From assembly GCA_964560005.1 (NCBI GenBank), contig CAZLKB010000001.1, forward strand, positions 221,216-285,215: 64,000 nt of DNA. The letters are read 5' to 3'. The notes beneath the pieces are model-generated. The model saw only the letters and a list, made by a program, of their open reading frames with translations, was not told where the DNA came from and made no database searches. Every line of letters begins with the position of its first letter. Position 1 is the stretch's first letter. Positions 29,552-55,028 of the stretch are shown here, one piece after another. The stretch comes from an uncultured Gammaproteobacteria bacterium. Lineage in GTDB: Bacteria; Patescibacteriota; Patescibacteriia; Patescibacteriales; GWC2-42-12. Position numbers and translations under genes: made by a program.

Positions 29552-29572
29552 AATAAATATTAATTAAATAGA

Positions 29573-30082
29573 CTAATTAATAACTTCAAAATTGTCTGGC
29601 GCCAGGCTTTCGCTATCAATATTTTCTTGGTCGCTTACTTCGCCAGGGCAATTTTCATCTCCCGTTATGCATTCGCTGCTTTTTCCAGATTCTTTTTGAT
29701 TTTTTAAATATTCTGACGGGTCGCTGCACTGTTCGTCTTCAGTTTTAGTTGCTTCATCACATAGCGTTTCCGTGCAATCTTCTCCTGCTTGGCAAATAAG
29801 CGGCGGGCAGTCTGATCCGTTAGGGTCACATACGGGAATAGCGCTAGCCTTTTTTTCTATAAATTTATAATAACTGATCCGTTCATCCGGATTTTCCGGA
29901 CATTCGCTATCGTCAACCGGGTCGCACTCATAGATAAAACATTTTTCCGTTGCCGGGTCGCAGTCTGCCTCTGACATAATATAATAATCTTTCAGTATGT
30001 AAAATTTATAAAAAGAGAAGACGGCTACGATAAAAATAATAGAAAAAAGGACTGAAAAAAATATTTTTGATTTTTTATCCAT
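29573..30082 (-). CDS. membrane-anchored acidic Cys-rich protein, unknown function
   Basis: An N-terminal TM helix, then an acidic ectodomain with 13 Cys (CDPATEKCFIYECDP...). Confidence 0.5.
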   Translation of the reverse strand: MDKKSKIFFSVLFSIIFIVAVFSFYKFYILKDYYIMSEADCDPATEKCFIYECDPVDDSECPENPDERISYYKFIEKKASAIPVCDPNGSDCPPLICQAGEDCTETLCDEATKTEDEQCSDPSEYLKNQKESGKSSECITGDENCPGEVSDQENIDSESLAPDNFEVIN

Positions 30083-30437
30083 ATTTATTAGATTATATTT
30101 TTCTAAAATTAAAGCAAATAGGATTGTAAAGAATACATTTAAAAATGGCTCTTCTAGGGAGTACCTATTAAGAGTTTAACATTTTATCGGGAAGAAATCC
30201 AGTGCATACAATAGTCAAGGATTATAAATGCTCGGGTTTATAATGAATTTATATCAACCCTCTACCATCTTCCCCGGAAGAGTGATATAAATAATAGTAA
30301 ATGGAGGAAAATTGACCCTGATGTTTTAAATTCGCTCGAACCGCGCCGGTTTTAATTAAACCCGGCGTCTCCGGCTCGCTTAAAACAAAGGGGAGTTCTT
30401 TCAAAATGTTTTAATTTAGTAAGAGAAAGAATCGAAT

Positions 30438-31934
30438 ATGAATGTACTATTACTTTACGCCAAGTTTCCGGATACTTTCTGGAGCTTTATACATGCGTTG
30501 AAATTCGTTAGCAAGAAAGCATCGTTGCCGCCTATGGGTCTCGCCACCGTGGCAGCAATGCTGCCCCGGGAGTGGGGGAAACGGCTGGTGGATGTAAATG
30601 TGCGGGAACTGCGCGATGATGATCTGGCTTGGGCTGACTGCGTTTTCATCAGTGCCATGAATGCCCAGTTAGATTCGGTGCGCAAGCTGATCGCGCGATG
30701 CCGCGCGGTAGGTAAAATCATCGTAGCCGGCGGGCCGCTTTTCACGCTTGAGCATGAGCAGTTTCCCGAAGTGAATCACTTCATCCTTAATGAGGCGGAA
30801 GTGACTTTGCCGAAGTTTTTACGGGATTTCGCCAGTGGTAATGCGAAACGTTTGTATACTTCAAGCGAATTTGCCGATATTCATCAGACGCCACCGCCGC
30901 TCTGGGAGTTGGTGAACTTTAAACAGTATGCATCAATGAGCCTGCAATTCTCGCGTGGCTGTCCGCATGGCTGCGACTTCTGCAGTGTTACCGCAATGTT
31001 AGGACATCGTCCCCGCACTAAGACCACCGCCCAGGTTATCGCCGAGTTGGATATCCTGCATCGGCTAGGTTGGCGCAAAGCAGTTTTCTTCGTGGACGAC
31101 AACTTCATTGGCAAAAAACAATTCCTCAAAACCGAGCTCTTGCCAGCGCTAATAGCCTGGCAAAAGAAAAACGGCTACAGTACGCCCTTCTTCACCGAAG
31201 CATCCATCGACCTGGCTGATGACGATGAATTAATGCGGTTAATGGTAGAGGCCGGATTCAATCAGGTATTCATCGGCATCGAGACGCCTAACGAGGCGAG
31301 TTTAAAAGAGTGCAATAAACGCCAAAACCTAAAACGCAATTTGGTCGAGGCTGTAAAGCACATTCAAAGCATGGGGCTGGAGGTGCAGGCTGGGTTCATC
31401 ATTGGATTTGATCATGACGACGAGACAATCTTTCAACGTATGATTGATTTCATCCAACGAAGCGGTATTGTTACGGCTATGGTTGGTCTGCTACAGGCCA
31501 TTCCGGGTACGCCGCTTTATGAGCGGCTGAAAAAAGAGCATCGTCTGACCGGAGACACCTCCGGCAATAACACGGATGCGACTACCAACTTCCTCACGAA
31601 GATGAATCCGGAGACATTGCGACAGGGATACCGGGACTTGATTAAATACATCTATTCACCCGGTCCGTATTACGCGAGAATTCGCAGATTCCTGCGTGAA
31701 TACCATCGGCCGAAAGTCACGCGCGCGCTTAGCTGGAATAACTTCAGGGCGTTTATCCACGCCAATGTCCGCCTGGGCATTTTCGGCCGCGAACGGTTTC
31801 ATTACTGGAGCTTATTGGTCTTGACGGTTTTTCGCCGGCCTTTCCATTTTCCGCTGGCAGTTACCCTGTCTATCTACGGCCACCATTTTCGCAGGGTGGC
31901 CAAATCAGTTTTGGCTGTAGTCCGCGCTAAATAG
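30438..31934 (+). CDS. B12-binding-domain radical SAM protein with DUF4070-like C-terminal region
   Basis: The N-terminal Rossmann-like LLLYAKFP...GLATVAAMLP pattern matches B12-binding rSAM enzymes. The SRGCPHGCDFCS motif is CxxxCxxC. GC-rich. Confidence 0.8.
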   Translation: MNVLLLYAKFPDTFWSFIHALKFVSKKASLPPMGLATVAAMLPREWGKRLVDVNVRELRDDDLAWADCVFISAMNAQLDSVRKLIARCRAVGKIIVAGGPLFTLEHEQFPEVNHFILNEAEVTLPKFLRDFASGNAKRLYTSSEFADIHQTPPPLWELVNFKQYASMSLQFSRGCPHGCDFCSVTAMLGHRPRTKTTAQVIAELDILHRLGWRKAVFFVDDNFIGKKQFLKTELLPALIAWQKKNGYSTPFFTEASIDLADDDELMRLMVEAGFNQVFIGIETPNEASLKECNKRQNLKRNLVEAVKHIQSMGLEVQAGFIIGFDHDDETIFQRMIDFIQRSGIVTAMVGLLQAIPGTPLYERLKKEHRLTGDTSGNNTDATTNFLTKMNPETLRQGYRDLIKYIYSPGPYYARIRRFLREYHRPKVTRALSWNNFRAFIHANVRLGIFGRERFHYWSLLVLTVFRRPFHFPLAVTLSIYGHHFRRVAKSVLAVVRAK

Positions 31935-32188
31935 CGCAGCCATCACCAAATTAAAACACCAAACCGTACGGTTTTCTCGCCTCGCTAAAGCGACAGCGAA
32001 GTAAGCCGTCCGGTTTTTTTTATTCGCTGTTTTAGAAGTAAAAAGCTATGATTAGCCGTAATTCTTGACAAAAACGAAAGATTCGTAGTAGGGTATAACG
32101 ATATGGAAAACCAAACGGGCATGGTTTTCCGTAAGTTCGTTGCAAAAAACAAAATGCCCAAAACAAAACAAAGAAATACAAAAAGTAA

Positions 32189-33775
32189 ATGAAACCGAAA
32201 TTAATGAAAGTGGCGGTGTTAACCGCCGCTCTGCAACAGATCGTATCTCGAGAAAAACAGGACAAATATCCACTTTTGCCAGTTCTACAATGGCTGGAGC
32301 TTGCCAAAAAAATCGGTTGCGACGGCATTGAACTCGCGGCCGCCCTGCATCCGCTCGACTCCTACGTGCCGGCTGAAGCCATGCTCGACCCGGTGGCGGA
32401 TCATCTGCCCTTAAGGCAAGAACTCTCGGATAGGGATGCCGGATTTATTATCGACTGGTCGAGAGTAACCGGGGTGAAGATCTACGACCTGGGCGTTTTC
32501 GAGAACCTGCTTCATCATGATCCGGCCATCCGCGCCAAGATCCACGCTCATGTGCTCAAGGCGGCCAGGGCGGCTGATAAATTGCGCTCGGCCGGCTGCC
32601 GGGGCGTGGCCGGCTTCATCGGCCGCGACATCACCGAGGACATGGACCAGCAACTGGCCCTGTTCGAGGAGCGGGTGATTCCACTGTTCAGGGAGTTCAA
32701 GAAGCTGGGGCTTACTTATTGGGTTGAACCCTGCCCCATGCCCGGCTGGAACACCACCGACACTTATATTAATAATGTCGCCTACTGCCCGGGCATGTGG
32801 ATCGCACTGTACAAGATTTGCGAAAAGCACAATGTGGAAGATGTTTTCCGCATCACCTACGACGAATCCCATGACATTCTCATGGGCACCTCGCATCATG
32901 GTTCGTTCTCCGCCATGACAGCTGCTGGCTTGCCATTCGTTGTCAGCCGTTTTCACGGCAAGGACCAGGTGGCCGATCAGGCAAAACTGGCTGTTTGGGG
33001 TTATCGCGGCCAAACCGTGCTTCGAGGCGATCGGCACGACGGCAAACCGGACCCGGACCCGAGGAAACAGTGCAACGCCTGGGGGGTCATGACAGCCAGC
33101 CATGGGCTTCCGGGTTTGGTCTTTTATAATCCGGCCAATATGGCCGCCCGGCGCCAAGTGGATTGGCTAGACCATCAGCTGGCGGCTAGGCGCGTACTGG
33201 GTTTGGACCCGGAAGAAACCGTGTTCATCATCGAGCACGAATGGGGTTCGGCCAGGAAACAGAATCTGGAAATGGTAACTGCCATCCTCTCCGCCTCGGT
33301 CGAGTTCATCAAAGGCATCGATCGAGCCGCGGCAGCTATGTATCAGGCCGAAACCGAAATCTGCCCGCAATTTAGTTTAGATCTGCCAAGCGACCTGGAC
33401 AATACCATGTATGATATTCTGGGGCTGGCGGAGGCCACGGCCCTGGACCCCTCGTCGGCGCTTCAAACTGCCGAACAGCCCGAGGCCGTAGAGCCGGCCG
33501 TTCCATTGCCTCCGTTCGCTGCCGTGCCGCCGGCCGAAGTCCCGGGCCTTAAGTCCGAACCGCCGGAAATCGTTGAGACGCCTCTTGCTCCGCCCCGCGA
33601 TCAGCTAGATAAGGGGATAGCGCCGCCCGGACCGGCCGCAACCGATGTGAACGAGTCAAAGCGCCGAGCCTCAGAAGCGGAACCGTTCGGGCCCAAAGCT
33701 GAGGCGGCGGCTGAACCGCCCTCGTCTGCGGTTGCGACTAACGAAGCAGAATATCCAGGCCGCGCCTGCGATTAA
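32189..33775 (+). CDS. xylose-isomerase-like TIM-barrel protein with about 130-aa Pro/Ala/Glu-rich tail
   Basis: GCDGIELAA... and the YWVEPCP pattern suggest the AP-endonuclease-2/sugar-phosphate-isomerase TIM barrel. The C-terminus is low complexity (PEAVEPAVPLPPFAAVPPAEVPG...). Confidence 0.55.
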   Translation: MKPKLMKVAVLTAALQQIVSREKQDKYPLLPVLQWLELAKKIGCDGIELAAALHPLDSYVPAEAMLDPVADHLPLRQELSDRDAGFIIDWSRVTGVKIYDLGVFENLLHHDPAIRAKIHAHVLKAARAADKLRSAGCRGVAGFIGRDITEDMDQQLALFEERVIPLFREFKKLGLTYWVEPCPMPGWNTTDTYINNVAYCPGMWIALYKICEKHNVEDVFRITYDESHDILMGTSHHGSFSAMTAAGLPFVVSRFHGKDQVADQAKLAVWGYRGQTVLRGDRHDGKPDPDPRKQCNAWGVMTASHGLPGLVFYNPANMAARRQVDWLDHQLAARRVLGLDPEETVFIIEHEWGSARKQNLEMVTAILSASVEFIKGIDRAAAAMYQAETEICPQFSLDLPSDLDNTMYDILGLAEATALDPSSALQTAEQPEAVEPAVPLPPFAAVPPAEVPGLKSEPPEIVETPLAPPRDQLDKGIAPPGPAATDVNESKRRASEAEPFGPKAEAAAEPPSSAVATNEAEYPGRACD

Positions 33776-33812
33776 ATCATGAGCGGGCGCACCCGCTCTT
33801 TAGTAAACATAA

Positions 33813-33848
33813 AGCCCCTCCAGATAATTCTGGAAGGGCTCTTTTTTT
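33813..33848 (+). terminator. rho-independent terminator
   Basis: agcccctccaga-taat-tctggaagggct followed by ctttttttt. Confidence 0.75.
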
Positions 33849-33928
33849 AATAATATAATACGAATACTACGAATACTCAATCAGCAATATTTGTAGTATT
33901 TGCGTACAATTTGTAGTATTCGGATATA

Positions 33929-35890
33929 TTATAGGTTAAAAAGCTCTAAGTGTATCTTTTTAGCTTCTTGGTCGGATAATTCTTTATATACCACCCTGAC
34001 CGTGTATCTTATTTTATCGGCCAGAGGATAAACATCGGCGACAGTTAAGCTCCAAAGATGGTTTTTATCCAGTTTTTTTTCCAGTTCGCCCAGGCGCTTA
34101 TAGATAGATTGGTTTTTAGGCAATTCAATATTGGCGTCCAAAGAAATTAATTTTTGCGTTATCTCAACCACCGGATTATTTATTGCCTCTTTGAGCAGGG
34201 AGGTAATCAGGGTTAAATTAATTTCGGCAAAATAAACATTTAATTTATTATCGTCCGGCGCCAGCTTATAGATTATGCCGGTAGATTTTTCGTTAACAAA
34301 AATGTCCCAGCAGGAGTCGGGGTTGGCGATCTTCGGTTTTACTTTAGAGCTAAAATATTTAATATCGGAAAAGCCGATTGAACGCAGTAAGGTTTCCAGA
34401 TTATTTTTAAATTGGCCGAGCGACTTATTTTTTTCGGCCGACAAGATGCCTAAAGATTCGTGTTCAAGATATTTTCCTCCCTGCTCCCCGAAAATTTTTC
34501 CGATTTCAAAAATTTGAATAAATTCCAGATTTTTTTTGAAGTATTCATTTAACTGAATTTTTAGGCCGGCCGCCATTGACTGCCTTAAATCAGGGAATAG
34601 GTCGTTGATTGAGTTTTGAGTGGTGATCGCCTTCCAGTCAAGATAATTAACCGAGTCTTTGCCTTCCGGTTTAGTCAGAGGCCAAGACAAAACTTCGTCA
34701 AAGCCTCGGGCGGTCAATATATCCCTGATAATTTCCGCCAGAACAATATTTTTCGGCGTGATATCCGGCACGACCTCAAGACTGGGAGCGGCGTCAGCAG
34801 GTATTTTATCATAGCCATAAATTCTGATAACCTCCTCAACCAAGTCTTCCGGCAATTCCAAATCCTGCCGGTAGGTCGGGGGCGTGATCAAGAATTTTTT
34901 ACCCGATTTTTTAACAATAAAATTTAGATCATTGAATATTTTGAGCGTCTTGACTTGTGGAATGTCTATGCCGGCTAATTTACTCGGCGATTCGGCTTCA
35001 AATTCTATGGTCGGAGAAATATACTTTTTAGGATAATAATCAAACAGCCGGCTGGCGACTCGGCCGCCGGCGTATTCTTCAATTAAAGCAACAAGCATTT
35101 CCAAAGCGGCCCGGGCGCCGTTCGGATCCAATTCTTTTTCCAGCCGATGGCTGGCTTCGGTTACGATATTCAACTGGCGCGAATTTTTTCTAATCACCGC
35201 GCGGTCGTAGATCGCTACCTCGGCGATAAGGTCGGTGGTTTTATTGTCAATTTCAGCCGCTTTGCCGCCCACGATGCCGGCCAGGGCGATAATATTTTTG
35301 TCGTCTCTGATGATAATTTCATTATCTTTTTTGAGCGCGACCGCGGTGCCGAACAAAGTGGTAACCTCGTTAAAATCATTATTGAGCGACCAGGCGAGAT
35401 TTCCCTGAATTTTGTTAAAATCAATCAAATGCGACGGATAGCCGGTTAGGAACATCACATAATTTGATAAATCTACCAGCAGGTTAACGCTATTCAGCCC
35501 CTGCAGTCCGATATATTCCTTAAGCCAGGCCGGCGATTCTTGATTTTTGAGGCCGGTCAATTTAACGGCGGTTATTCTTTTAACGAATTTACCAGCCTCA
35601 ACTTTAATTTCCAGCTTTTCCTGACCCGGAGTAATTTTTTTTATTAACGGCAGTCTTACTTTTAAGCCATAATAGGCGGCTGCTTCTCCGGCCAGTCCGA
35701 AAACCGACAGGCAGTCGGCGCGGTTTTGCCTAACCTCAAAACTCAAAAGATAATCCGAACGGTTTTTATATTTAACTTCGGTAAAACCGTCCATCATAAA
35801 ACCGGTCAAGGTCAGAGCCTGGCCGACTTCTCTAGCCCCGGCTTTAAGGCCGGGCGCTAATTCTTTAATTTGACTGTATAGTATTTTCAT
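33929..35890 (-). CDS. pheT: phenylalanine-tRNA ligase beta subunit
   Basis: MKILYSQIKELAPGL start, with B3/4 and B5-like regions. ATG at 35890 is preferred over the extended track start. Confidence 0.9.
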   Translation of the reverse strand: MKILYSQIKELAPGLKAGAREVGQALTLTGFMMDGFTEVKYKNRSDYLLSFEVRQNRADCLSVFGLAGEAAAYYGLKVRLPLIKKITPGQEKLEIKVEAGKFVKRITAVKLTGLKNQESPAWLKEYIGLQGLNSVNLLVDLSNYVMFLTGYPSHLIDFNKIQGNLAWSLNNDFNEVTTLFGTAVALKKDNEIIIRDDKNIIALAGIVGGKAAEIDNKTTDLIAEVAIYDRAVIRKNSRQLNIVTEASHRLEKELDPNGARAALEMLVALIEEYAGGRVASRLFDYYPKKYISPTIEFEAESPSKLAGIDIPQVKTLKIFNDLNFIVKKSGKKFLITPPTYRQDLELPEDLVEEVIRIYGYDKIPADAAPSLEVVPDITPKNIVLAEIIRDILTARGFDEVLSWPLTKPEGKDSVNYLDWKAITTQNSINDLFPDLRQSMAAGLKIQLNEYFKKNLEFIQIFEIGKIFGEQGGKYLEHESLGILSAEKNKSLGQFKNNLETLLRSIGFSDIKYFSSKVKPKIANPDSCWDIFVNEKSTGIIYKLAPDDNKLNVYFAEINLTLITSLLKEAINNPVVEITQKLISLDANIELPKNQSIYKRLGELEKKLDKNHLWSLTVADVYPLADKIRYTVRVVYKELSDQEAKKIHLELFNL

Positions 35891-36908
35891 TTTCGTAATA
35901 TTTATATCCCAGGTTTCCTCCCAGTAAAGTCCTGATATCGGTAATTTTGTATTTGGCCATGACCAGGCGGTCCAGCCCCAAACCGAAAGCAAAACCCAGC
36001 CATTTTTTAGAGTCAATCCCGGCCATTTTCATAACCTTGGGATGAATCATGCCGGCGCCGGCGATCTCCAGCCAGCCCACGCTTTTACAAACCGCGCAGC
36101 CCGCCCCCCGGCAGTTAAAGCATCGCAAATCAACGCCCAAGCCCGGCTCCACTTCAGGATAATATTTATTGCGGTAGCGGATGATCACATCAGATCCGTA
36201 TAGTTTTTTTAATAAAATATTCAGTATGCCGAATAAATCCTTTAAGCTGGTTTGTTTTAGCACAGCCACGGCTTGATATTGGTGGAAGATAAAATGATTG
36301 CTCTTATTTACATTTTCATTGCGGTAGACTCGGCCGGGAGAGACGATTTTAAAAGGCGGCTTATAATTTTTTAGCGCCCTAGCTTCAATTGAAGAAGTCT
36401 GCGTTCTTAAGAGAAAATTCGGTTCTTTAATATAGATAGAGTCCTGCATGTCCCTGGCCGGGTGGTCTTTGGGCACATTTAATCTTTGAAAGCAGTATTC
36501 GTCTTCTTCTATTTCCGGGCCGTCCATAATACTAAAGCCCAGGCCTAAAAATAGCCGGTTTATTTCCCTGATCGTCTTGGTGATGGGGTGAAGGTGGCCG
36601 ATTTTCGGAATATTGTAATTTAACTCTTCAGCTTCGGATTTTAATTTATCGGCCAGTTTATGGCTAGCCAAGGCGCTTTCTCGCGCCTTAAATATATCCA
36701 TGGCTTCAAGATACAGTTTTTGCATTAGCGGTGCCTTGGTTTTCTTTTCGGACGCGGGCAGGTTTTTTATTTCTTTTAGCGCCAGTTTAATTGAACCGGA
36801 ATCGCCCAAATACCGGCGCCAGATTTTTTCCGTATCCGCCGTAGCTTTGGCGGATAAGAGATCCGCCCTTAGGGTTGCTAGTAGAGTTTTTATTTTATTT
36901 TCAGGCAT
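35865..36908 (-). CDS. pheS: phenylalanine-tRNA ligase alpha subunit
   Basis: HPARDMQDSIYI, FRNE-like YRNENV and GFAFGLGLDRLVM class II motifs. ATG at 36908. Confidence 0.9.
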   Translation of the reverse strand: MPENKIKTLLATLRADLLSAKATADTEKIWRRYLGDSGSIKLALKEIKNLPASEKKTKAPLMQKLYLEAMDIFKARESALASHKLADKLKSEAEELNYNIPKIGHLHPITKTIREINRLFLGLGFSIMDGPEIEEDEYCFQRLNVPKDHPARDMQDSIYIKEPNFLLRTQTSSIEARALKNYKPPFKIVSPGRVYRNENVNKSNHFIFHQYQAVAVLKQTSLKDLFGILNILLKKLYGSDVIIRYRNKYYPEVEPGLGVDLRCFNCRGAGCAVCKSVGWLEIAGAGMIHPKVMKMAGIDSKKWLGFAFGLGLDRLVMAKYKITDIRTLLGGNLGYKYYENENTIQSN

Positions 36909-37135
36909 AATAAAGCGGCTCAAAACTAGATTTAGATGTAATCTAATCTTACTAAATTCAAAGGAAAATAGCAAATTAAATATGTATAAAATATTGACAA
37001 AAATTAGAAAATTATTTATTCTAATGTCTATGTTCTTATGGCTCTTTTGAAATTAAAATAAGAGGGGGTCGTAAGGATTGTCTGAAAACAAATCCCGCGC
37101 AAAAGGCGGGGCAAAAAATCAACAAAAAACTAACA

Positions 37136-37477
37136 ATGGCAAAATTATTACCCAGAGGAAGTATGTTTATGACCGTTCAAGAGACAGAGGGCGATAGGCT
37201 GAAGTTGCAGGCGCACCTGGAGCGCCAGGTGCGACATTTTATGTCGCGAAACGGCAAAGGCCGGCAAAAAGACAATAAAATTGTTAAACAATTTATCCAG
37301 CAAGGAGGCCAAGGCAGTAAGCGTGAGGTGCTCGCCGCCGTGCGCAACATTCGCCGAGGTGATCGGCTGGACTCCAAGGCGAGAATAAAGGCGGAGCATT
37401 CTGTCCCGTTTCCCGACATCCGCCGCAACCTCAATTACTTTGCCCGCTTGACGCAATGCCAACAAGGCGGTCGTTAA
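37136..37477 (+). CDS. small basic hypothetical protein (GC-rich)
   Basis: 113-aa ORF (start could be 37166/37172) with no recognisable motif, followed by a clean terminator. Confidence 0.4.
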   Translation: MAKLLPRGSMFMTVQETEGDRLKLQAHLERQVRHFMSRNGKGRQKDNKIVKQFIQQGGQGSKREVLAAVRNIRRGDRLDSKARIKAEHSVPFPDIRRNLNYFARLTQCQQGGR

Positions 37478-37491
37478 CCCGCTAATCTCAT

Positions 37492-37519
37492 GAGCCGTTA
37501 AGAAAACGGCTCTTTTTTT
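37492..37519 (+). terminator. rho-independent terminator
   Basis: gagccgtt-aagaa-aacggctc followed by ttttttt. Confidence 0.75.
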
Positions 37520-37599
37520 ACTGTTTTTTTGATTTTTAATTTTTCATTATATGTCAGATTTGCACTAAATTTATGTAAAATATTTTGCCAAACCGAGGC

Positions 37600-37628
37600 T
37601 TGACAGGTTGATTATAATAAAATATACT
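37600..37628 (+). promoter_or_regulatory. candidate sigma70-type promoter of the structured RNA unit
   Basis: TTGACA (37600-37605), a 17-nt spacer, then TATACT (37623-37628). Confidence 0.5.
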
Positions 37629-37634
37629 GTCTAT

Positions 37635-38044
37635 ACTTATTAGTTAACCGCACCTTGCAATTTTGGACAACCGGTAGGGTTACGAAGCACGAAAACAAGC
37701 CTCTTTTTGGTTTGAGGCCGACTTCGTTATGTGGCCGATAGTGGCGGTTCGGTTCCTCCGCCGACACTCCGTCTCGGCGTCCCGAGACGGCTTCTCGCCA
37801 CATCGGAGCGTGCTTGTGAGTCTCCGCCATGCTCATAGAGTTACCCGCTTATCGGTTGTCCATTTTTCCCCGCCAGAGAGAGGGGGTCCCGAAGGACCCG
37901 GTCCTTGAGTGTCACCATCGTTAGAGTGGTTGGCCGAATTCGTTCGGCCGAAAACCCAGATGGAGATCTCCCCCCTCTCTCCACATTTCCGAGCTACCGT
38001 CAGTGCCGCTAAAACAAAAAAGCGCCACCTCCGGTAGCTTTTTT
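37635..38044 (+). ncRNA. unclassified structured GC-rich RNA candidate (about 400 nt, two domains plus terminator)
   Basis: There is no credible ORF. Nested helices: GGACAACCG 37665-73 / CGGTTGTCC 37853-61; AAGCACG/CGTGCTT; ATGTGGC/GCCACAT; hairpins GGCGG..CCGCC and CCGTCTCGG-cgtc-CCGAGACGG. The second domain is closed by AGAGAGGGGG 37877-86 / CCCCCTCTCT 37971-80. Terminator GCTACCG...CGGTAGC plus T6 lies at 37993-38044. Confidence 0.5.
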
Positions 38045-38189
38045 ATTTGTCTCTCAAGATGTAAAGCGACGATTGGTTTTTTATCTAGCTTCCCAAGGCC
38101 TTTCTCTTAGATTCTTAGCCGGAGTATTAAGGCGGCCATGCCGATTATAACCCCTTTACAAGCCGGGTAATAAAATATAGAATAAAACC

Positions 38190-39248
38190 ATGGATTTAAA
38201 TAGGCAAAATAAAGACAATAACCTGCCTACGTTGAAGCTTCGGCAGGCAGGGAAAACTGTTTTTTCCGGGGTTCAGCCCTCGGGTGTTTTACATCTGGGC
38301 AATTATCTAGGCGCAATTTCCCAATGGGTGGAAATGCAAAATCAATATAATTGCATTTTTTGCGTGGTTGATTATCACGCCATTACGGTAAAGCAGGCGC
38401 CTAAAGAATTGTCTAGGCGTATTTTGGATGTGGTAAAAATTTATTTAGCTTCGGGTATAAATCCGGAAAAGTCAGTAATTTTCCAGCAGTCGGATATTAC
38501 CGCGCATACTGAATTAGCCTGGATTTTAAATTGCGCCGCCGCCCGCATGGCTGATTTAAATAAGATGACCCAGTTTAAAGAAAAGGCCTGCCTGTCCGGT
38601 AGGCAGGGCGCTAACAAAGCGTCGGTCAGCGTCGGCTTGTACGACTACCCGGTGTTAATGGCGGCCGACATTTTACTCTATAATACCGATTTAGTGCCGG
38701 TGGGCGAGGATCAGGTTCAGCATGTGGAATTAACCCGCACTCTGGCGGAAAGATTCAACCGCGATTATGGCCAAATCTTTAAAGTGCCGGCAGTGGCGGT
38801 AAGAAAGCAGGGCGCGCGCATTATGGGGCTGGATGATCCGACTAAAAAAATGAGCAAGAGCGCCGGTTCCCCGGCAAATTATATCGCCTTGGTCGATTCA
38901 CCCGAGATAGCAGCGAAGAAAATCAAGCGCGCGGTCACGGATTCGGGAAAAGAAATCATGTTTGACCGAGAGAATAAGCCGGCCATCGCCAATCTATTGG
39001 CTATTTATTCATTCCTATCAGGTATAAAAATTGAAGAATTGGTAAAAAATTATCAAGGCCGGGGCTACGGCGAGTTTAAAGACGATTTAGCCGAAGCGGT
39101 AAAAAAGTTTTTAATGGAATTTCAGCTAAAGTATCATAGTTTTAAAGACGATGAAGTCAGGCAAATTTTAAAAGCAGGCGCGGCTAAAGTCCGGCCGATC
39201 GCCGAAGATACATTGAGAAAAGTAAAAGACAAGTTAGGTATTATATAA
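38190..39248 (+). CDS. trpS: tryptophan-tRNA ligase, with two small hairpin-derived insertions
   Basis: SGVQPSGVLHLGNY (HIGH-type), KMSKS, MTQFKEK and YPVLMAADILLY motifs. Confidence 0.9.
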   Translation: MDLNRQNKDNNLPTLKLRQAGKTVFSGVQPSGVLHLGNYLGAISQWVEMQNQYNCIFCVVDYHAITVKQAPKELSRRILDVVKIYLASGINPEKSVIFQQSDITAHTELAWILNCAAARMADLNKMTQFKEKACLSGRQGANKASVSVGLYDYPVLMAADILLYNTDLVPVGEDQVQHVELTRTLAERFNRDYGQIFKVPAVAVRKQGARIMGLDDPTKKMSKSAGSPANYIALVDSPEIAAKKIKRAVTDSGKEIMFDRENKPAIANLLAIYSFLSGIKIEELVKNYQGRGYGEFKDDLAEAVKKFLMEFQLKYHSFKDDEVRQILKAGAAKVRPIAEDTLRKVKDKLGII

Positions 39249-39277
39249 TTTTTTTATTATTGCGAGACGAAGTCTGC

Positions 39278-39474
39278 CGGATGCGGATGTTTGTTTTTCG
39301 CTTAAGACGAAATTTGGGTATTTTTTTTAAAATTATTCAATTAGGTAAAGACCGAAGTAGCCAACAGAAAAAATTGAATAATTTTAAAAAAAATTACTAC
39401 AATTTCACTCTGATCAGTTGTTTTGGCTCCGAGGAAAGCACCGAGGCGCTGCTCAAAACAAACATCCGCATCCG
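39278..39474. repeat. family-A long hairpin element, copy 2
   Basis: Outer 20-bp inverted repeat cggatgcggatgtttgtttt / aaaacaaacatccgcatccg. The core is near-identical to copy 1. Confidence 0.8.
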
Positions 39475-39503
39475 ACAATTATTAATTAACAGCTAAAGTC
39501 TAT

Positions 39504-40742
39504 ATGGCGAATCAATTTAAAAGCGCGATCAACCAATTGAATAAAACCGCCGGTTTAATGGATATAAATTACGATGAGCTGGAAATTTTAAGAATGCCGG
39601 ACCGCATAATCCAGGTTTCTTTGCCGGTGCTGATGGATAATGGGCGGATTAAAGTTTTCACCGGTTACCGGGTGCAATATAATAATATCCGCGGACCGTA
39701 TAAGGGCGGCATCCGCTTTCATCCTCAAGTGAATTTGGACGAGGTAAAGACCCTGGCTTTTTGGATGACTATAAAGTGCGCGGTAGCCGACATTCCTTAC
39801 GGCGGCGGCAAGGGCGGGGTGGCGGTTGACATTAAATTATTAAGTCCGGGAGAGCTGGAGCGCTTAACGCGCGCTTACGCCAGGGGTTTTGCGGATTTCA
39901 TCGGGCCGAATATTGACATTCCGGCGCCTGATGTCTATACCAATGCCCAGACTATGGCTTGGCTGATGGATGAATACAGCCACATTAAAGGCGAGAATGT
40001 GCCGGCCGTAGTGACGGGTAAGCCGGTGGAGATCGGCGGTTCCGCGGGGCGCGAGACCGCCACCAGCTTGGGCGGATTTTATATTTTAGAGCAGGTTTTA
40101 GAGAAGTTTAAGAAGACTAAGAGCCAGTCCGGCATCGCGGTTCAGGGGTTCGGCAATGTGGGCATGAATTTCGCCTTGATCGCTTACCGGGCGGGTTATA
40201 AAATTGTGGCGGTTTCGGATTCTCGGGGCGGCGTTTATAATAGCAAGGGGTTGAATCTGGTAGAGCTTTTATCATATAAGCAGGCGACCGGCAGCGTGGT
40301 TAACTATAAAAAGGCCGAGAATATCAGCAATGAAAAATTATTGGAATTGCCGGCGGAAATTATGGTTCCGGCCGCCTTAGAAAATGTCATTACCGAAAAA
40401 AATGCCGGGCGCGTTAAAGCCAAAATTATTTTAGAACTGGCCAATGGCCCGGTCAATCCGGCGGCGGACGAAAAATTGATTAAAAAAGGCGTTATGGTCA
40501 TGCCGGATGTTTTAGCCAATGCCGGCGGAGTTATCGGTTCCTATTTTGAGTGGGTTCAGAATTTCAGGCAGTATTATTGGAATAAAGAACGGTTTGACAA
40601 CCGGCTCAAGAGCCAAGTCATTGACGCTTTTAAAAGCGTTTGGCAGACTATGGAAACCCGCGGCAATTGCCAAATGCGCGATGCTGCTTACATGGTGGCG
40701 GTGGAAAGATTGGTCAAGGCGTTAAGGATTCGGGGAATCTAA
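39504..40742 (+). CDS. gdhA: Glu/Leu/Phe/Val dehydrogenase family (glutamate dehydrogenase)
   Basis: The GPYKGGIRFHP and PYGGGKGG motifs, with a GFGNVG Rossmann motif. Confidence 0.9.
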   Translation: MANQFKSAINQLNKTAGLMDINYDELEILRMPDRIIQVSLPVLMDNGRIKVFTGYRVQYNNIRGPYKGGIRFHPQVNLDEVKTLAFWMTIKCAVADIPYGGGKGGVAVDIKLLSPGELERLTRAYARGFADFIGPNIDIPAPDVYTNAQTMAWLMDEYSHIKGENVPAVVTGKPVEIGGSAGRETATSLGGFYILEQVLEKFKKTKSQSGIAVQGFGNVGMNFALIAYRAGYKIVAVSDSRGGVYNSKGLNLVELLSYKQATGSVVNYKKAENISNEKLLELPAEIMVPAALENVITEKNAGRVKAKIILELANGPVNPAADEKLIKKGVMVMPDVLANAGGVIGSYFEWVQNFRQYYWNKERFDNRLKSQVIDAFKSVWQTMETRGNCQMRDAAYMVAVERLVKALRIRGI

Positions 40743-40748
40743 AAATAT

Positions 40749-40846
40749 TGTCATTCCGGCCTTTAAGCCGATCCGCCCGCCTAGGGCGGGAGGCGAGCCG
40801 CCCCGCAAAGTGCGGGGTGGATTGCGGGTCAAGCCCGCAATGACAG
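40749..40846. repeat. REP-like composite palindromic element (tgtcattcc...gcaatgaca)
   Basis: tgtcattccggcc...gcctagggcgggaggcgagcc...gattgcgggtcaagcccgcaatgaca. It is nearly the same composite as 57797-57918. Confidence 0.8.
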
Positions 40847-40855
40847 ATAAATTTT

Positions 40856-41152
40856 ATGGATCTGCAAGACTTATTGACTTCAGCCAAAACGCAATCTTTT
40901 GATAAGTTTGAGCAAAAATTGGATTCTTTTGTTAGGCATCATTATAGTTTTCAAAATTTGAACGAAGCTAATCGCCAGGTAGTCTTAGATATTATTAAAA
41001 AGCGCTTACCCAATATCCATAATGGCACTGGCATTTCCGACCTGGTGCTGCGGCAGGAAATGTATCATCTTTTTGAGCATAGAATTGAGCTTAATTTAAC
41101 CGAAGGAGATTTAAAAGACATTAAAGAAATATTGGAGTTGTTTAAAAAATAG
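40856..41152 (+). CDS. hypothetical protein (98 aa)
   Basis: Backbone-composition ORF followed by a bidirectional terminator at 41169-41195. No motif recognised. Confidence 0.45.
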   Translation: MDLQDLLTSAKTQSFDKFEQKLDSFVRHHYSFQNLNEANRQVVLDIIKKRLPNIHNGTGISDLVLRQEMYHLFEHRIELNLTEGDLKDIKEILELFKK

Positions 41153-41206
41153 AATATAAATAAAAAAACTGCCAGCTCGGTGCCGGCAGTTTTTTGATGC
41201 TGAATT

Positions 41207-42628
41207 TTAGTTTAAGCTTTCCACATTAACGCCAAAACTCCAATCAACTTCCTTATAGCTATGTAATAAATTTTTGAGATAATTTTTAAGTTTGTTATAT
41301 TTATCTTGCGTTAAAGCCTCAAATTTAACGGTTAGATATGGGCCGTTTTGCGAATAGCGGACAACGAACATAGAGTCATTCATATCCAGCCTGACGCCGT
41401 CGCCCGCCCGCTCATCGTCAATTACTTCGGCCTGCGGGTAATCGGTTCGCAATTTTTCAGAGATTTTTTTGATTAAACCAACTTTTACATCTTCGCCGCA
41501 GCCGATTTTAATTTCCGGGCTGGAAATATATTTTGGCAGCTGGTCAATCGCCTGGGCTAAGGTTTGGCCGGTTCTGGATAAATAGCGCAAGAGTCTTAGA
41601 CTGGAATAAAGGCCGTCGTCATGATTATAAAAGTCCGCGGAGAAAAAGAAATGGCCGGACAGTTCGCCGATAAAAGCGGCTTTCACTTCCTGATTTTTCT
41701 TTTTTAAAAATGAGTGTCCGGTGCGCCACATAAAAGGTATGCCGCCGTATTTTTTAATCGTGTCCGGTACTACCTTGGAGCATAAAGTATTAAACATAAT
41801 TTTCGCGCCCGGGTGGTCTTTTAAAACATCAACGGCGAATAACGCTACTAGACAATCGTTCCAAATAATCCGCCCGTTATTATCCACGATACCAATGCGG
41901 TCGCCATCGGAATCAAAAGAAAAACCCAGATCGGCTTTTTCAGCCGAGACTTTCTTGCTCAATCTTTCACCGACTTTAATTTCGGTAGGATCAGGCGCGC
42001 CCAGAGGGAAAGACGGATCCAACTGACAGTTGCTTTCGATAACTTCGCAGCCGGCTTTACGCAAAAGTTCCGGCGCAATTTGACCGGCTGTGGCATAGCC
42101 GGCATCAACCACCGCTTTAAACTTTTTTTTGAGCGGCAAGCATTTTAAAATATCGCTAAAGTAGGCTTGCCTGATATCTTGAGCTTGATTTTTCCCTAAA
42201 GTTTTACCCGGCTCGTAGTCTTCTTGCTCAATCATGAACCGTAATTTCTGAATACTGTCAGCCACTAAAGTTTCGGAGAAGTCTATGGCGATTTTAAAGC
42301 CATTATATTCGGCCGGGTTATGCGACCCGGTAATGAAAGCTCCGCCTTTTATCTTTAAATAATATTGCGCCCAATAGAATGTTCCCACTAGATTCAAACC
42401 AATATCAACCGTGTCAACTCCGGCCCAGTTAAAGCCTTTGATTAGGCTGGCAGAATATAGCGGACTAGTCAGCCGGGAGTCTCGGCCCACCAGAGCCTTA
42501 GTAATGTTATGCCGTTTTAGATAAGTGCCGTAAGCTCGACCCAGATGTTCAACGATCTCCGGCGTCAAGTCTTTACCGGCGATGCCTCTTAAATCGTAGC
42601 CGCGGAAAATATTCGGATTTACTTTCAT
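41207..42628 (-). CDS. phosphomannomutase/phosphoglucomutase
   Basis: FITGSHNPAEYNGFK active-site loop and FDSDGDR metal loop. Confidence 0.9.
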   Translation of the reverse strand: MKVNPNIFRGYDLRGIAGKDLTPEIVEHLGRAYGTYLKRHNITKALVGRDSRLTSPLYSASLIKGFNWAGVDTVDIGLNLVGTFYWAQYYLKIKGGAFITGSHNPAEYNGFKIAIDFSETLVADSIQKLRFMIEQEDYEPGKTLGKNQAQDIRQAYFSDILKCLPLKKKFKAVVDAGYATAGQIAPELLRKAGCEVIESNCQLDPSFPLGAPDPTEIKVGERLSKKVSAEKADLGFSFDSDGDRIGIVDNNGRIIWNDCLVALFAVDVLKDHPGAKIMFNTLCSKVVPDTIKKYGGIPFMWRTGHSFLKKKNQEVKAAFIGELSGHFFFSADFYNHDDGLYSSLRLLRYLSRTGQTLAQAIDQLPKYISSPEIKIGCGEDVKVGLIKKISEKLRTDYPQAEVIDDERAGDGVRLDMNDSMFVVRYSQNGPYLTVKFEALTQDKYNKLKNYLKNLLHSYKEVDWSFGVNVESLN

Positions 42629-42652
42629 AGAGTTTAAAGTTATAAATCAGAA

Positions 42653-43792
42653 TTATTTTTTTAGCGTCAGCTTCAGGGTTAAGAAAATTCCGCCCAAGCC
42701 CCAAAGCATGGCGAGAAGCGACATAATTCGGCCGATAAAAGGCGGGGCAAAAATCAAATGAAGCGCGATAATGCCGACTACCATGCCTAAAATCAGGGAA
42801 TCTTTTTGTTGGGGCATCAGCTTATTTAACAGCCAGCGGCCGGTTAAAATACCCACTAAAATTTTGCTTAAATATAGAGCGATCAGCCAGAGCGCCATGA
42901 TTATGAGCGAAAGCGGGATGCCGATAATGGTAATTAATAAAATAATCGCTATAATCGGAGTCAACAGTAAAACCAGGATTCCCCAGCCCAGCGAAGCGTT
43001 GGCTCGGGCCAGCATCAGGTCGGTAATTTTAATGATCGGCTCGCGCCAAAAATTAATCAGAACCATGCCGATGACCAAGGCCGAAAATATGGAGATCAAT
43101 TTGCCCCACCAAGAAAAATTGATATCAGTGGATTTTTTGGCGGCGATAATCGGCAAGCGATGATTGGTTTTGCCTTTAATTACCGCGCCGTCTTCAATGG
43201 TAGCGTTTTTTTCGGAGGTATAGTTGAGGTCGCCGTTTATTTCGGCTGTGCCGGCGATAGCTAGAGGTTTTTCATAACCATTTCGCGCGCCGAAATTAAG
43301 GTTTATGTTTTTGCCGACTTTTCCGGCCAGGCTGGCTTTGCCCACGCTGCCGTGCAAGTCGCGGCCGATATCGCCTCTTAATTCAAAAGCATTGCCCAAG
43401 ACGAATAAGTCCCAGCCTATGCTCGAACTGGCCGAGGTGACAATGGTGGCGCCGAATGCCATGGCGTTTCGAGCAACTTGGCCGGTAAAATTAATCGTGT
43501 TGCCGGCCAGGCGCAGATTACCGCCGACTTGGCCGTTAATGTTAATGGATTGTCCGGCGCAGATAACATCGCCGGCCACTTGGCCGTTAATGTTAATGGA
43601 TTGTCCGGCGCAGATAACATCGCCGGTGACTTTTCCCTCAATGTTCAAGTTTGAGCCTACGGCGTAGAGATTGCCCTCTATAGTTTCGCCTTTGGGCAGA
43701 TAAACCGAATCGCCTTTTTTAATAGCATAAGCCGAGACGGTCAGTGGCAGAAGCAAGGCAATAAAACATACTGCGAGAATTGATTTTTTCAT
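42653..43792 (-). CDS. bactofilin-like repeat protein with signal peptide and C-terminal multi-TM domain
   Basis: Repeated G(D/N)V/L..G.SI.I.G.V beta-helix-like units as in polymer-forming cytoskeletal (DUF583) proteins. It contains an exact 51-bp tandem duplication. Confidence 0.65.
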   Translation of the reverse strand: MKKSILAVCFIALLLPLTVSAYAIKKGDSVYLPKGETIEGNLYAVGSNLNIEGKVTGDVICAGQSININGQVAGDVICAGQSININGQVGGNLRLAGNTINFTGQVARNAMAFGATIVTSASSSIGWDLFVLGNAFELRGDIGRDLHGSVGKASLAGKVGKNINLNFGARNGYEKPLAIAGTAEINGDLNYTSEKNATIEDGAVIKGKTNHRLPIIAAKKSTDINFSWWGKLISIFSALVIGMVLINFWREPIIKITDLMLARANASLGWGILVLLLTPIIAIILLITIIGIPLSLIIMALWLIALYLSKILVGILTGRWLLNKLMPQQKDSLILGMVVGIIALHLIFAPPFIGRIMSLLAMLWGLGGIFLTLKLTLKK

Positions 43793-43840
43793 AGGTTTAT
43801 GGTTAAATTTAGATGTTTTTAATATCGTGTTTTGTCTATT

Positions 43841-43954
43841 GGTGTCGGACAGCTGTTTGAGTTTTTCACTTAAGATGAAATCTGGGCGATTTTTCTTAAG
43901 GAAAAATCGCTACGATTTCATATGCGCTCAAAACCCAAACAGCTGTCCGACACC
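43841..43954. repeat. family-A hairpin element, copy 3 (short form)
   Basis: Outer 19-bp inverted repeat ggtgtcggacagctgtttg / caaacagctgtccgacacc. The core cacttaagatgaaatctgggcgatttttcttaag...gatttcatatgcgctcaaaac is related to copies 1 and 2. Confidence 0.75.
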
Positions 43955-43962
43955 TATTCATT

Positions 43963-45675
43963 ATGCCAAATCGCCAAGGAAAAAACAACCGGATTAAAGC
44001 CATAAGTGAATTGTTGAAGAAAAAAATCAATTCGCGCTATGAGCTCATGGCTTTAAAAAGAAAGCTGTCAAAAAAATACGGTTTTGAGATTTTAGCAAAT
44101 TCGGAGATTTTAAGTGAGTATAAAAAGAGGTTGAATGGAGGGGCGAGTAAGCGTTCGCCCGCGCTGGAAAAGATTTTGCGCAAGCGAACCGTTAGAACTA
44201 TGTCCGGCATAGCGCCGGTGGCGGTGTTAACTAAGACCTACCCCTGTCCGGGCGAATGCGCTTATTGCCCGACTGAAAAAAATGTGCCCCAAAGCTATTT
44301 GTCAAACGAACCGGCGGTGATGCGCGCAATCCGTTGCGGTTTTGATCCGTATAAGCAGGTGCGGTATCGGCTCCAGGCGCTCATTACCAACGGGCATGAA
44401 CCCACTAAGATAGAATTAATCGTTATCGGCGGTACCTGGAGTGTGTTGCCAAAGGCTTATAAGTATTGGTACATAGCACAATGCTTTAAAGCGGCTAATG
44501 AATATGGGAGGAAAATCTCGAATTTCGAATTTCGAATTTCGAATGAATTTTTAAATTCTAATTCTGAAATTAAAAATTTTAAATTCAATCAAAATTCAGA
44601 ATTAAAAATTCAAAATTTAAGAAGAAAATTATTAGTTGAGCAAAAAAGAAATGAGAATGCCAAATATCGCATCATAGGCGTTACCCTGGAAACGCGGCCG
44701 GACTATGTCAACGAAGAAGAACTTTTAGAAATGAGGGAGCTCGGGTGCACCAGGGTGGAAATCGGCGTGCAGGCGATTGATGATGAGATTTTAAAACTGA
44801 ATAAGCGCGGGCATGGCGTTAAAGCGGTGGCCGAGGCGACTAAGCTATTAAAAGATTACGGTTTTAAAGTGACTTACCATATTATGCCCGGCCTGCCCGG
44901 CTCAACCGCGAGAAAAGATTTGGCCATGTTTAAAAAATTATTTAAAGACCGGCGCTTTCAGCCGGATCAGATAAAATTTTATCCCACCGTGGTAACGCGC
45001 GGCAGTCTATTATATAAATGGTGGCGAGCGGGAAAGTATAAGCCATACTCGGATAAGGTTTTACAAAATTTAATCGTGGCGTGTAAAAAAATCGTGCCGC
45101 CGTATGTGCGCATTATCAGATTAATCCGCGATATTCCCAAAGAATCCATCGTGGCCGGCAATGTCATCACTAATCTGCGCCAGATGATGAAAGATCGGGG
45201 AGTGAAATGCAATTGCATAAGATGCAGAGAAGCGAAAGAGAAGCCAGAAGTAAGAATTAAGAAGTTAGAATTAAGAATAATAAAATATCAAGCGTCTAAT
45301 GGGATGGAATATTTTTTGAGTTATGAATCTAAAGACAATAAAGCGCTTTTTGGGTTTTGCCGATTGAGGTTGGTAACGCATAGCGTACAACGCATAACGC
45401 ATAACATAAAATCCCCCCAACCCCCCTTTATTAAAGGGGGTAAGATGGCGTTGATTCGGGAGCTGCATGTTTATGGCGAATTAGTGCCCATGGGTTCTCA
45501 GAAGAAGGTTCAGCATGCCGGGCTGGGCAAAATGCTGATGAAGGCGGCGGAACGGATCGCCAAAGACAATGGTTGTAAAAAAATCGCGGTTATTTCCGGC
45601 GTTGGCGTCAGAGAATATTATCGTAAGTTGGGCTATAGATTGGAGCATAGTTATATGGTAAAAAATTTGCTATAG
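43963..45675 (+). CDS. Elp3-like radical SAM plus GNAT tRNA-modification enzyme, with two repeat-derived insertions
   Basis: CPGECAYCP radical-SAM cluster motif and a C-terminal GNAT region (HAGLGKMLMKAAERIA). Confidence 0.85.
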   Translation: MPNRQGKNNRIKAISELLKKKINSRYELMALKRKLSKKYGFEILANSEILSEYKKRLNGGASKRSPALEKILRKRTVRTMSGIAPVAVLTKTYPCPGECAYCPTEKNVPQSYLSNEPAVMRAIRCGFDPYKQVRYRLQALITNGHEPTKIELIVIGGTWSVLPKAYKYWYIAQCFKAANEYGRKISNFEFRISNEFLNSNSEIKNFKFNQNSELKIQNLRRKLLVEQKRNENAKYRIIGVTLETRPDYVNEEELLEMRELGCTRVEIGVQAIDDEILKLNKRGHGVKAVAEATKLLKDYGFKVTYHIMPGLPGSTARKDLAMFKKLFKDRRFQPDQIKFYPTVVTRGSLLYKWWRAGKYKPYSDKVLQNLIVACKKIVPPYVRIIRLIRDIPKESIVAGNVITNLRQMMKDRGVKCNCIRCREAKEKPEVRIKKLELRIIKYQASNGMEYFLSYESKDNKALFGFCRLRLVTHSVQRITHNIKSPQPPFIKGGKMALIRELHVYGELVPMGSQKKVQHAGLGKMLMKAAERIAKDNGCKKIAVISGVGVREYYRKLGYRLEHSYMVKNLL

Positions 45676-45824
45676 TAAGAGTATGGAATATCCTTTATGA
45701 AAATTAAAATAGGAGAAAAAAATGAACAACTAAGTTATCATTGCCGGAAATTCAAATCTGCTAACGCAATAAATAATAAATTAATATTCTGGATTCCCGC
45801 CTGCGCGGGATGACAAAAAAGTGT

Positions 45825-47072: not shown

Positions 47073-47189
47073 TTTTTTTCTGTCATTCCCGCGAAGGCGG
47101 CTTGCCCGCCTTGGGCAGAGAATCCAGGCAATATCACCAAGTAATTATTATTTCCACCTTTTTATATTAGATGCTTCATTCGTGACGCT

Positions 47190-47377: not shown

Positions 47378-47478
47378 TTATAAAATTCTCAAACTTCGGC
47401 CGCTTAATTCGTCTCCCAATCCCCCTTGGTGATTCTAAAACATAAGCAACAATATAATCAAGGCAACAGATAATTTAT

Positions 47479-54978: not shown

Positions 54979-55018
54979 TGGATTCCGGCTCGCCTTCGGC
55001 TTTAAGGCCGGAATGACA
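54979..55018. repeat. REP-like palindromic element
   Basis: ggattccggctcgccttcggctttaaggccggaatgaca. Confidence 0.75.
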
Positions 55019-55028
55019 TATTTATTAT

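Follow-up and report, generated by a model that had tools for sequence, protein, structure and literature searches.

OLE, raiA, ROOL, and GOLLD are orphan bacterial non-coding RNAs (ncRNAs) that stood out as GC-rich intergenic stretches of AT-rich genomes. We analyzed a unit of ~410 nt between pheS and trpS in a 64-kb stretch of contig CAZLKB010000001.1 (hereafter, the window), which resembles these RNAs in several respects. It is a stand-alone, multi-helix element of several hundred nucleotides, free of open reading frames (ORFs) and located in a GC-rich intergenic island with a predicted promoter and terminator. As in those RNAs, conserved unpaired motifs are held in a helical scaffold. Unlike them, the unit has no match in Rfam 15, it was found in two genomes of a single lineage of the Candidate Phyla Radiation (CPR), and large interior parts of it are not conserved. 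We consider it probable that the unit is a stand-alone structured ncRNA gene and one of two known members of an undescribed small family in some Candidatus Falkowbacteria. The second member was found in Candidatus Falkowbacteria GW2011_GWA2_41_14 (locus L002).

Other described RNAs offer partial parallels. The 6S and Ms1-type RNAs (180-300 nt) are structured, stable, and trans-acting, with a poorly conserved sequence. The unit shares with them a predicted independent transcription; unlike them, it has neither a long rod nor a central open-promoter-like bubble. RNase P RNA and tmRNA are comparable in length and in their multi-domain fold. The T-box (RF00230) is matched in location, since the unit precedes trpS, shares its strand, ends in an intrinsic terminator, and occupies the region that holds a T-box in relatives. 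In contrast to a T-box, the unit displays no specifier-loop architecture or competing fold, and its homolog is not located upstream of a co-directional gene.

Predicted Transcription Unit and Fold

The promoter of the unit agrees with the consensus at 11/12 positions and is the best sigma-70-like match within positions 28000-47999 (20 kb), with a predicted start site at ~37635. The unit ends in an intrinsic terminator with a hairpin of 50 nt, in which the sequence GCUACCGU ... AGCGCCA ... CCGGURGCUU is conserved in both copies. Its GC content is 55-59%, as compared with ~30% in the intergenic flanks; the whole window has 44% GC, with values of 37-58% for its genes. Inside the unit are four short ORFs (74, 59, 47, and 42 codons), all with codon scores of about zero, and the sense-frame translation yielded no matches among 5.8 billion proteins. 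The promoter and the T-tract, rather than the folding energy, assign the RNA to the plus strand; thermodynamics alone does not discriminate between the strands. A repeat and paralog search found the element only once in the window. No terminal repeats or target-site duplications were detected around the 1.2-kb pheS-trpS spacer.

Folding of the plus strand gave a minimum free energy of -165.6 kcal/mol, as compared with -128.4 +/- 5.9 kcal/mol for dinucleotide shuffles (z = -6.3). When the window was scanned in 200-nt segments (322 in total), the two domains of the RNA, with z values of -5 to -5.8, ranked among the best ~3%; better scores were reached by several plain inverted repeats at other places in the window. 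The first-pass annotation of this DNA had proposed a structured RNA that is transcribed independently, contains no ORF, and could not be classified. The predicted promoter-terminator unit, the fold z-score, and the codon scores support this reading, and the promoter, terminator, and helices it quoted are all present where it had placed them. The parts of the unit are the following:

37600-37628, plus strand: promoter, with the -35 box TTGACA (37600-05), a 17-nt spacer, and the -10 box TATACT (37623-28)
37636-37663, plus strand: 5' tail, mostly unpaired and partly conserved (ACCGCACCUU vs. UCCGUACUUU)
37664-37676, plus strand: 5' strand of P1, the helix that closes domain 1 (partner 37850-37862, probability 0.98)
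37682-37727, plus strand: P2 hairpin, with the basal stem ACGAAG/CUUCGU and the invariant motif UGGUUUGAGG at 37708-37717
37729-37803, plus strand: P3 (AUGUGGC/GCCACAU), enclosing the invariant GCGGUUCGGUUCCUC (37744-37758) and a GC-rich hairpin (37769-37790)
37804-37849, plus strand: segment present only in the window copy, holding the 3' strand of the AAGCACG/CGTGCTT helix
37850-37862, plus strand: 3' strand of P1, UAUCGGUUGUCCA, in which UCGGUUGUCC is invariant between both copies
37863-37875, plus strand: interdomain linker UUUUUCC(N)GCC, conserved in both copies
37876-37981, plus strand: domain 2, with its closing helix (37876-86/37971-81) and the inner helix CCAUC/GAUGG (37915-19/37959-63)
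37991-38045, plus strand: intrinsic terminator, with the hairpin at 37991-38040 followed by T6 (the U-tract) to 38045

Domain 1 (37664-37862) is closed by the 13-bp helix UGGACAACCGGUA/UAUCGGUUGUCCA, and domain 2 by the 11-bp helix GAGAGAGGGGG/CCCCCUCUCUC, which has a pair probability of 1.0. The predicted main helices have pair probabilities of 0.9-1.0. The hairpins CCGUCUCGG-CGUC-CCGAGACGG and GGCCGAA-UUCG-UUCGGCC were confirmed in the predicted fold, and a second UUUCC follows domain 2 in both copies. The inner helices of the first-pass annotation are present, although some of them compete with alternatives. The GGGTCC/GGACCC helix is in competition with AAGGAC/GUCCUU, and pair-probability analysis indicated GUGGCGG as an alternative partner for the 3' strand of P3 (the ATGTGGC helix). 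RNAalifold also permits pairing between GAGG (37714-17) and CCUC (37755-58).

The window copy contains near-duplicate strands within 37729-37747 and 37796-37830: the 5' side has two occurrences of GUGGC, and the 3' side has CGCCACAU and CCGCCAUG. It also has three YCCGCC boxes. Together, these repeats allow several mutually exclusive pairings. The sequence suggests an internal duplication in the window copy relative to the shorter L002 copy.

Rfam 15 was searched at two levels. With gathering thresholds, the whole window yielded four tRNAs elsewhere and nothing at the RNA unit; ARAGORN found 4 tRNAs and no tmRNA in the window. At E <= 10, the region and its single domains gave noise at 9-18 bits and E = 0.3-9 (snoRNAs, an archaeal leader, and a viral stem-loop), and the L002 copy gave no match whatever. 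The first-pass annotation had been unable to assign the RNA to RNase P, tmRNA, signal recognition particle (SRP), 6S, T-box, or the common riboswitches, and the searches with both copies agree with it. Bacterial RNase P RNA (RF00010/RF00011) had no match at E <= 10 in either copy, and its P4/CR motifs (GAAAGUCCGG and ACAGAANCCGGCUUA-like strings) were not found in the RNA by sequence inspection. For tmRNA (RF00023 and the permuted forms), the termini form no tRNA-like domain, the tag reading frame is absent, and neither Rfam nor ARAGORN reported a match. 6S RNA (RF00013) was rejected on the predicted fold, which consists of two closed multi-branch domains, and on the missing Rfam match. SRP RNA, group I/II introns, OLE, ROOL, GOLLD, raiA, HEARO, and the other Rfam 15 families had no match near the gathering score. 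Omega RNA (IscB/TnpB), IS110 bridge RNA, and retron msr-msd were dismissed as well, there being no partner gene within 2 kb of either copy.

The Copy in Candidatus Falkowbacteria GW2011_GWA2_41_14

We compared 80 pheS-anchored and about 20 trpS-anchored loci, using nhmmer, two single-sequence covariance models, motif regular expressions, and a two-sequence profile hidden Markov model. L002 was the sole match. The single-sequence covariance model of domain 1 produced a marginal match at L002 521-666 (E = 1.7), collinear with two weak blastn matches. The homolog has the following location:

L002 496-876, corresponding to ~26113-26493 of LCAP01000001.1, minus strand of LCAP01000001.1: second copy of the RNA

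This copy is full-length, having two closed domains, the terminator, and twelve conserved blocks in matching order. The shared sequence starts with the -35 box TTGACA, found at L002 461-466 in a position equivalent to that in the window copy, and a similar 5' tail. GGACA(A)CCGG ... UCGGUUGUCC closes domain 1, followed in the list of blocks by CGAAG, UGGUUUGAGG, GCGGU(U)CGGUUCCUC, CGCCAC, and the linker UUUUUCC-GCC. Domain 2 is closed by GAGAGGGGGU ... CCCUCUC, after which come the second UUUCC and the terminator with its U-tract. The fold z-score of the L002 copy was -4.4 (L002 460-880). Global alignment of the two copies scored 114.5, as compared with 24.9 +/- 7.1 (maximum 57) for 500 dinucleotide shuffles (z = 12.6), with 241/309 columns identical.

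The conservation of pairing was counted with our own script on a Needleman-Wunsch plus manual alignment, which MAFFT failed to reproduce. The counts cover six helices: P1, the P2 base, P3, the domain 2 closing helix, the terminator base, and the terminator apex. Among 48 homologous pairs, 37 were identical, 4 had a one-side change, 6 had changed on both sides and still paired, and 1 was broken. P1, aligned with L002 521-532/654-666, retained 10/12 pairs unchanged and 2/12 as compensatory changes, with none broken. The P2 basal stem (L002 538-543/572-579) had 5 identical pairs and 1 compensatory pair; P3 had 5 identical, 1 compensatory, and 1 broken. For the domain 2 closing helix, we found 8 identical pairs, 1 one-side change, 2 compensatory changes, and no broken pair, and for the terminator 9/12 identical pairs, 3/12 one-side changes, and no broken pair. 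RNAalifold on the same alignment gave 54 identical, 5 one-side, and 7 both-side pairs, and failures occurred at gaps only. Its consensus keeps P1, the domain 2 closing helix, CCAUC/GAUGG, and the terminator.

The first-pass annotation had held that the absence of any homolog with compensatory changes would speak against its proposal; the L002 copy is such a homolog, with the six both-side changes and the single broken pair given above. The helices it had listed survive only in part as a conserved core: the closing helices are kept, but the AAGCACG/CGTGCTT helix has no counterpart in L002, nor does the segment 37804-37849, and most of the domain 2 interior has diverged. The collinear blocks and the pairing kept through substitutions are common to both copies, and are suggestive of a new RNA family.

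In L002, the RNA directly follows tsaD and is succeeded by a convergent GFO_IDH oxidoreductase gene. No ORFan is nearby, and L002 retains a T-box 2.5 kb downstream of its RNA copy. Because of this context, we regard the RNA neither as a trpS leader nor as a T-box substitute, and the 113-codon ORF beside the window copy is not taken as its partner. The tsaD gene of the window lies 21 kb upstream of the RNA, and both copies fall within the tsaD...trpS interval. The shared interval is consistent with vertical inheritance with local rearrangement, which it fits better than mobility.

The single-sequence covariance model of domain 2 matched only itself in 934 kb, and the UGGUUUGAGG motif had no occurrence beyond the two copies in 1.7 Mb of related loci. 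No match to the RNA was obtained by blastn against phage and plasmid collections, and no relative appeared among the matches listed in translated-frame DNA scans of genome, metagenome, and viral contigs. An exact 18-mer from the domain 2 internal loop, a loop that is itself not conserved, matched metagenome sequences 6 times by chance. In viral contigs, the matches to two motif patterns and to three other words were likewise all attributable to chance. We did not find the RNA described in the literature.

Neighborhood of trpS and Other Repeats

The TrpS sequence places the organism in the Candidatus Falkowbacteria/Parcubacteria part of Patescibacteria, its closest sequenced relatives having ~80% TrpS identity. 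According to an exact-protein look-up, the organism was seen in a single sample, SRR12133404. In the window, the neighbors of the RNA are pheS, a 113-codon ORFan, and trpS, and the RNA terminator ends 150 nt upstream of the co-directional trpS. The gene order 3' of trpS is conserved in relatives (gdh, a 98-residue ORF, and phosphoglucomutase), and the region 5' of trpS is highly variable among them. The relevant features of the neighborhood are listed below:

38155-38183, plus strand: trpS promoter TTTACA-17-TAGAAT, ending ~7 nt before the ATG at 38190
37136-37477, plus strand: 113-codon basic ORF (pI 11.4), with its promoter at 36994-37022 and its terminator at 37492-37512
L002 3326-3555 and 3606-3827; L004 ~1740-1995 and 2040-2195; L097 ~440-565 and 759-944; L176 ~2660-2990 and 3010-3180; L177 ~8200-8520: T-box leader regions of relatives

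The trpS promoter, CTTTACAA-N17-TATAGAAT, is almost invariant in 8 genomes (the window, L002, L004, L007, L095, L097, L099, and L100), whatever lies upstream. With this conserved promoter of its own, trpS does not need the RNA for its transcription. The short gap between promoter and ATG suggests that the trpS mRNA is leaderless or near-leaderless in this lineage.

In most relatives, a T-box leader precedes a small Cys-rich ORF, frequently together with a TrpB-like gene. Their T-box has the canonical AGGGUGGNAYCACG antiterminator and a terminator, but its Rfam score of 30.8 bits falls short of the gathering threshold (93). The Cys-rich ORF had only sub-threshold zinc-ribbon matches and no Anti-TRAP match in Pfam. 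The arrangement recalls the T-box-controlled anti-TRAP gene of Bacillus. The window itself is without the T-box/Cys-rich module. Immediately 5' of trpS, L007 has a bAvd-like gene and a reverse transcriptase at 2418-3863, a pair resembling a diversity-generating retroelement (DGR). In L097, ParB-like ORF fragments and IS200/RAYT-like transposase fragments (...GYVIMPNHLHLLL...) lie 5' of trpS at 979-1640 and are interrupted by short tandem repeats. From these contents, the spacer 5' of trpS looks like an insertion hotspot.

The 113-codon ORF has a coding-like codon score and a GC content of 52%. It matched only itself among 5.8 billion proteins, and no match was found in Pfam, PHROG, NCBIfam, or PADLOC. 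Its AlphaFold model, with a mean confidence (pLDDT) of 46.7, is unusable; it is all-helical at low confidence. The ORF is not part of the RNA unit, and was rejected as a partner of the RNA, having no family match and no place beside the L002 copy. The first-pass annotation had seen in both an islet of shared composition and supposed that they might have arrived together. The GC content of the ORF is ordinary for the window genes, the ORF is unique to this genome, and it is absent from the vicinity of the L002 copy. The idea of a GC islet acquired by horizontal transfer was abandoned, as the gene-by-gene GC content is ordinary.

Pairing of the 5' tail of the RNA (37642-37659) with the gdh coding sequence at 39813-39831 would give a duplex of 16 bp and one bulge (-26.7 kcal/mol). 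This was the best of 2106 window segments, although its lead over the runner-up (-23.8 kcal/mol) is not clear-cut; gdh is two genes downstream.

The window contains several other repeats. Members of a GC-rich palindromic family (GTCATTCC...GGAATGAC, GATTGCGGGTCAAGCCCGCAATGAC) occur at 40750-40856, 54993-55029, and 57797-57929, as well as at ~620-700 of L097 and ~2500-2530 of L004. They are intergenic and look like elements of the miniature inverted-repeat transposable element (MITE) or repetitive extragenic palindromic (REP) type. Direct repeats of ~150 nt, 91-98% identical, are present at 47246-47393 and 51758-51912, flanking a 4.5-kb segment. No window segments fold with better z-scores than the long near-perfect inverted repeats at 43838-43957 and 60607-60765 (-12.8 and -10.9). 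An AT-rich palindromic element occurs twice with 75-86% identity, at 3772-3870 and 39310-39406, the second copy being in the trpS-gdh spacer.

Alternative Readings and Possible Biological Role

On balance, the two copies lead us to favor a genuine conserved structured RNA gene that acts in trans. Such an RNA would serve as a folded scaffold, in which the helices set the architecture and hold a few invariant unpaired motifs. The presented motifs would be UGGUUUGAGG, GGUUCCUC, and the UUUUUCC after each domain, which are pyrimidine-rich or resemble Shine-Dalgarno or anti-Shine-Dalgarno sequences. They could bind a protein partner or purine-rich RNA targets, and the internal GAGG:CCUC pairing could mask or organize them. 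This particular mode of action, i.e., motif presentation to a protein or a purine-rich RNA, is the likeliest that we see but is offered tentatively, and we think it rather unlikely to be right in detail. A somewhat less likely possibility is a Patescibacteria-specific class of large RNA, which would act as a ribonucleoprotein subunit or in a ribozyme-like manner, by analogy with OLE, ROOL, and raiA, and not as an ordinary base-pairing regulator. The motifs UGGUUUGAGG, GCGGUYGGUUCCUC, and UUUUUCC would then form the active or binding site.

A number of observations weigh against a conserved trans-acting RNA gene as proposed here. With two members, the compensatory changes are suggestive and do not amount to statistical proof of covariation. 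The alignment and the helices were chosen by us after viewing both sequences, which biases the counts toward structure, and nhmmer and blastn give no significant link between the copies. Most of the domain 2 interior is not conserved in L002, and domain 1 has more than one possible inner fold. The RNA was not found in the 80 pheS-anchored loci, nor in the tsaD-trpS interval of at least three relatives (L004, L176, and L177). The mode of action is proposed from motif composition. The duplex between the interdomain linker and the 5' untranslated region of the 113-codon ORF ranked 90th of 2106 window segments; the linker as a device targeting this region was thus no better than background and was rejected. 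As three relatives in which the tsaD-trpS interval is sequenced do not have the RNA, it is, judged from these loci, dispensable and patchily distributed. The patchy distribution argues for an accessory rather than a housekeeping role.

The position of the RNA would also fit a cis-acting trpS leader or attenuator that replaced the T-box of the relatives, sensed tRNA-Trp or tryptophan, and controlled terminator read-through. The RNA is on the trpS strand, its terminator lies 150 nt upstream of trpS, and relatives carry T-box leaders in the corresponding region, where the window has none. We nevertheless regard such a role as very improbable. The trpS gene has the promoter conserved in 8 genomes, and no fold competes with the terminator: upon folding without its 3' strand, the 5' strand was essentially unpaired, the upstream domains were unchanged, and no antiterminator formed. 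A T-box riboswitch proper was rejected because the RNA has neither the T-box sequence AGGGUGGNACCGCG nor the UGGN-bulge antiterminator. The T-box motif GGGTGGNACCNCG, with up to 1 mismatch, had 0 matches in the whole window and is plainly present in relatives. The T-box covariance model gave no match at E <= 10, and under equal settings a relative's genuine T-box reached 30.8 bits (E = 6e-5). Moreover, a convergent gene follows the L002 copy, and that genome retains a T-box 2.5 kb beyond the copy, so that the two elements occur together rather than replacing each other. The possibility that Rfam models missed a highly divergent member of a known family in CPR (RNase P RNA, tmRNA, 6S, SRP, group I/II intron, or an OLE/ROOL/raiA-type RNA) is of a similarly low order. 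The length of ~400 nt and the multi-domain fold do resemble RNase P RNA or tmRNA, and CPR RNAs are often atypical, as the low bit score of the relatives' T-boxes illustrates. Nonetheless, neither the two copies nor the single domains had a match at E <= 10, ARAGORN reported no tmRNA, and inspection found no P4/CR motifs or tRNA-like 3' end. The absence from several close relatives, whose genomes were sampled locally only, is unexpected for a housekeeping RNA.

We also considered a non-functional or selfish element, such as a decaying insertion or a MITE-like palindrome, whose helices would be DNA inverted repeats and whose flanking signals would be fortuitous or element-derived. This is unlikely, if clearly less so than the two preceding explanations. 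The patchy distribution and the different immediate neighbors of the copies fit it, as do the insertion hotspot upstream of trpS (DGR, RAYT, ParB fragments, and MITE-like repeats), the many strongly folding inverted repeats in the window, and the adjacent genome-specific ORFan. However, the element is single-copy in the 64 kb, no extra copy was present in 1.7 Mb of related loci, and terminal inverted repeats and target-site duplications were not found. Conservation is concentrated in the helices and in specific loops, with 6 compensatory changes against 1 broken pair, the -35 box and the terminator have kept their positions, and the copies share the tsaD...trpS interval. The least likely explanation, with hardly any weight in our view, is that the opposite strand encodes a small protein. 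An antisense ORF of 74 codons with an ATG start is present in both copies (window 37612-37836, minus strand; L002 487-711, minus strand), and the equal lengths and the shared peptide motifs EEP and VRL.KY are in its favor. In this frame, however, the mismatches are evenly distributed over the codon positions (14, 9, and 12, each of ~46), and the indels between the copies (1, 2, 4, 7, 14, and 20 nt) are not multiples of 3. Because codon periodicity is absent and the indels do not keep the frame, the ORF, as judged from the alignment, is not conserved as a coding sequence. HMMER found 0 homologs among 1.84 billion representative proteins, the ORF was not called in either genome, and the shared peptides merely translate conserved RNA motifs. 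The first-pass annotation was right in treating this ORF as an artifact, but not in calling it the only one, as there are four short ORFs.

The RNA is probably an orphan, GC-rich structured bacterial ncRNA of a familiar kind that lies outside Rfam 15, and the second member adds support to this assignment, more than most orphan ncRNA candidates have. In the tiny genomes of the CPR, or Patescibacteria, non-coding DNA has little space. It is therefore likely that a structured RNA of 400 nt, retained in two diverged genomes with a promoter and terminator of its own, has some function. To our knowledge, RNAs beyond the housekeeping ones have hardly been described from this radiation, whose members are uncultured. 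From the two sequences, a seed covariance model can be built for a family-level search across Patescibacteria. The link between the copies was missed by nhmmer, blastn, the pseudo-ORF searches, and the word scans, and it was found by a structure-aware model combined with collinearity; other apparently orphan CPR RNAs may likewise have hidden relatives.

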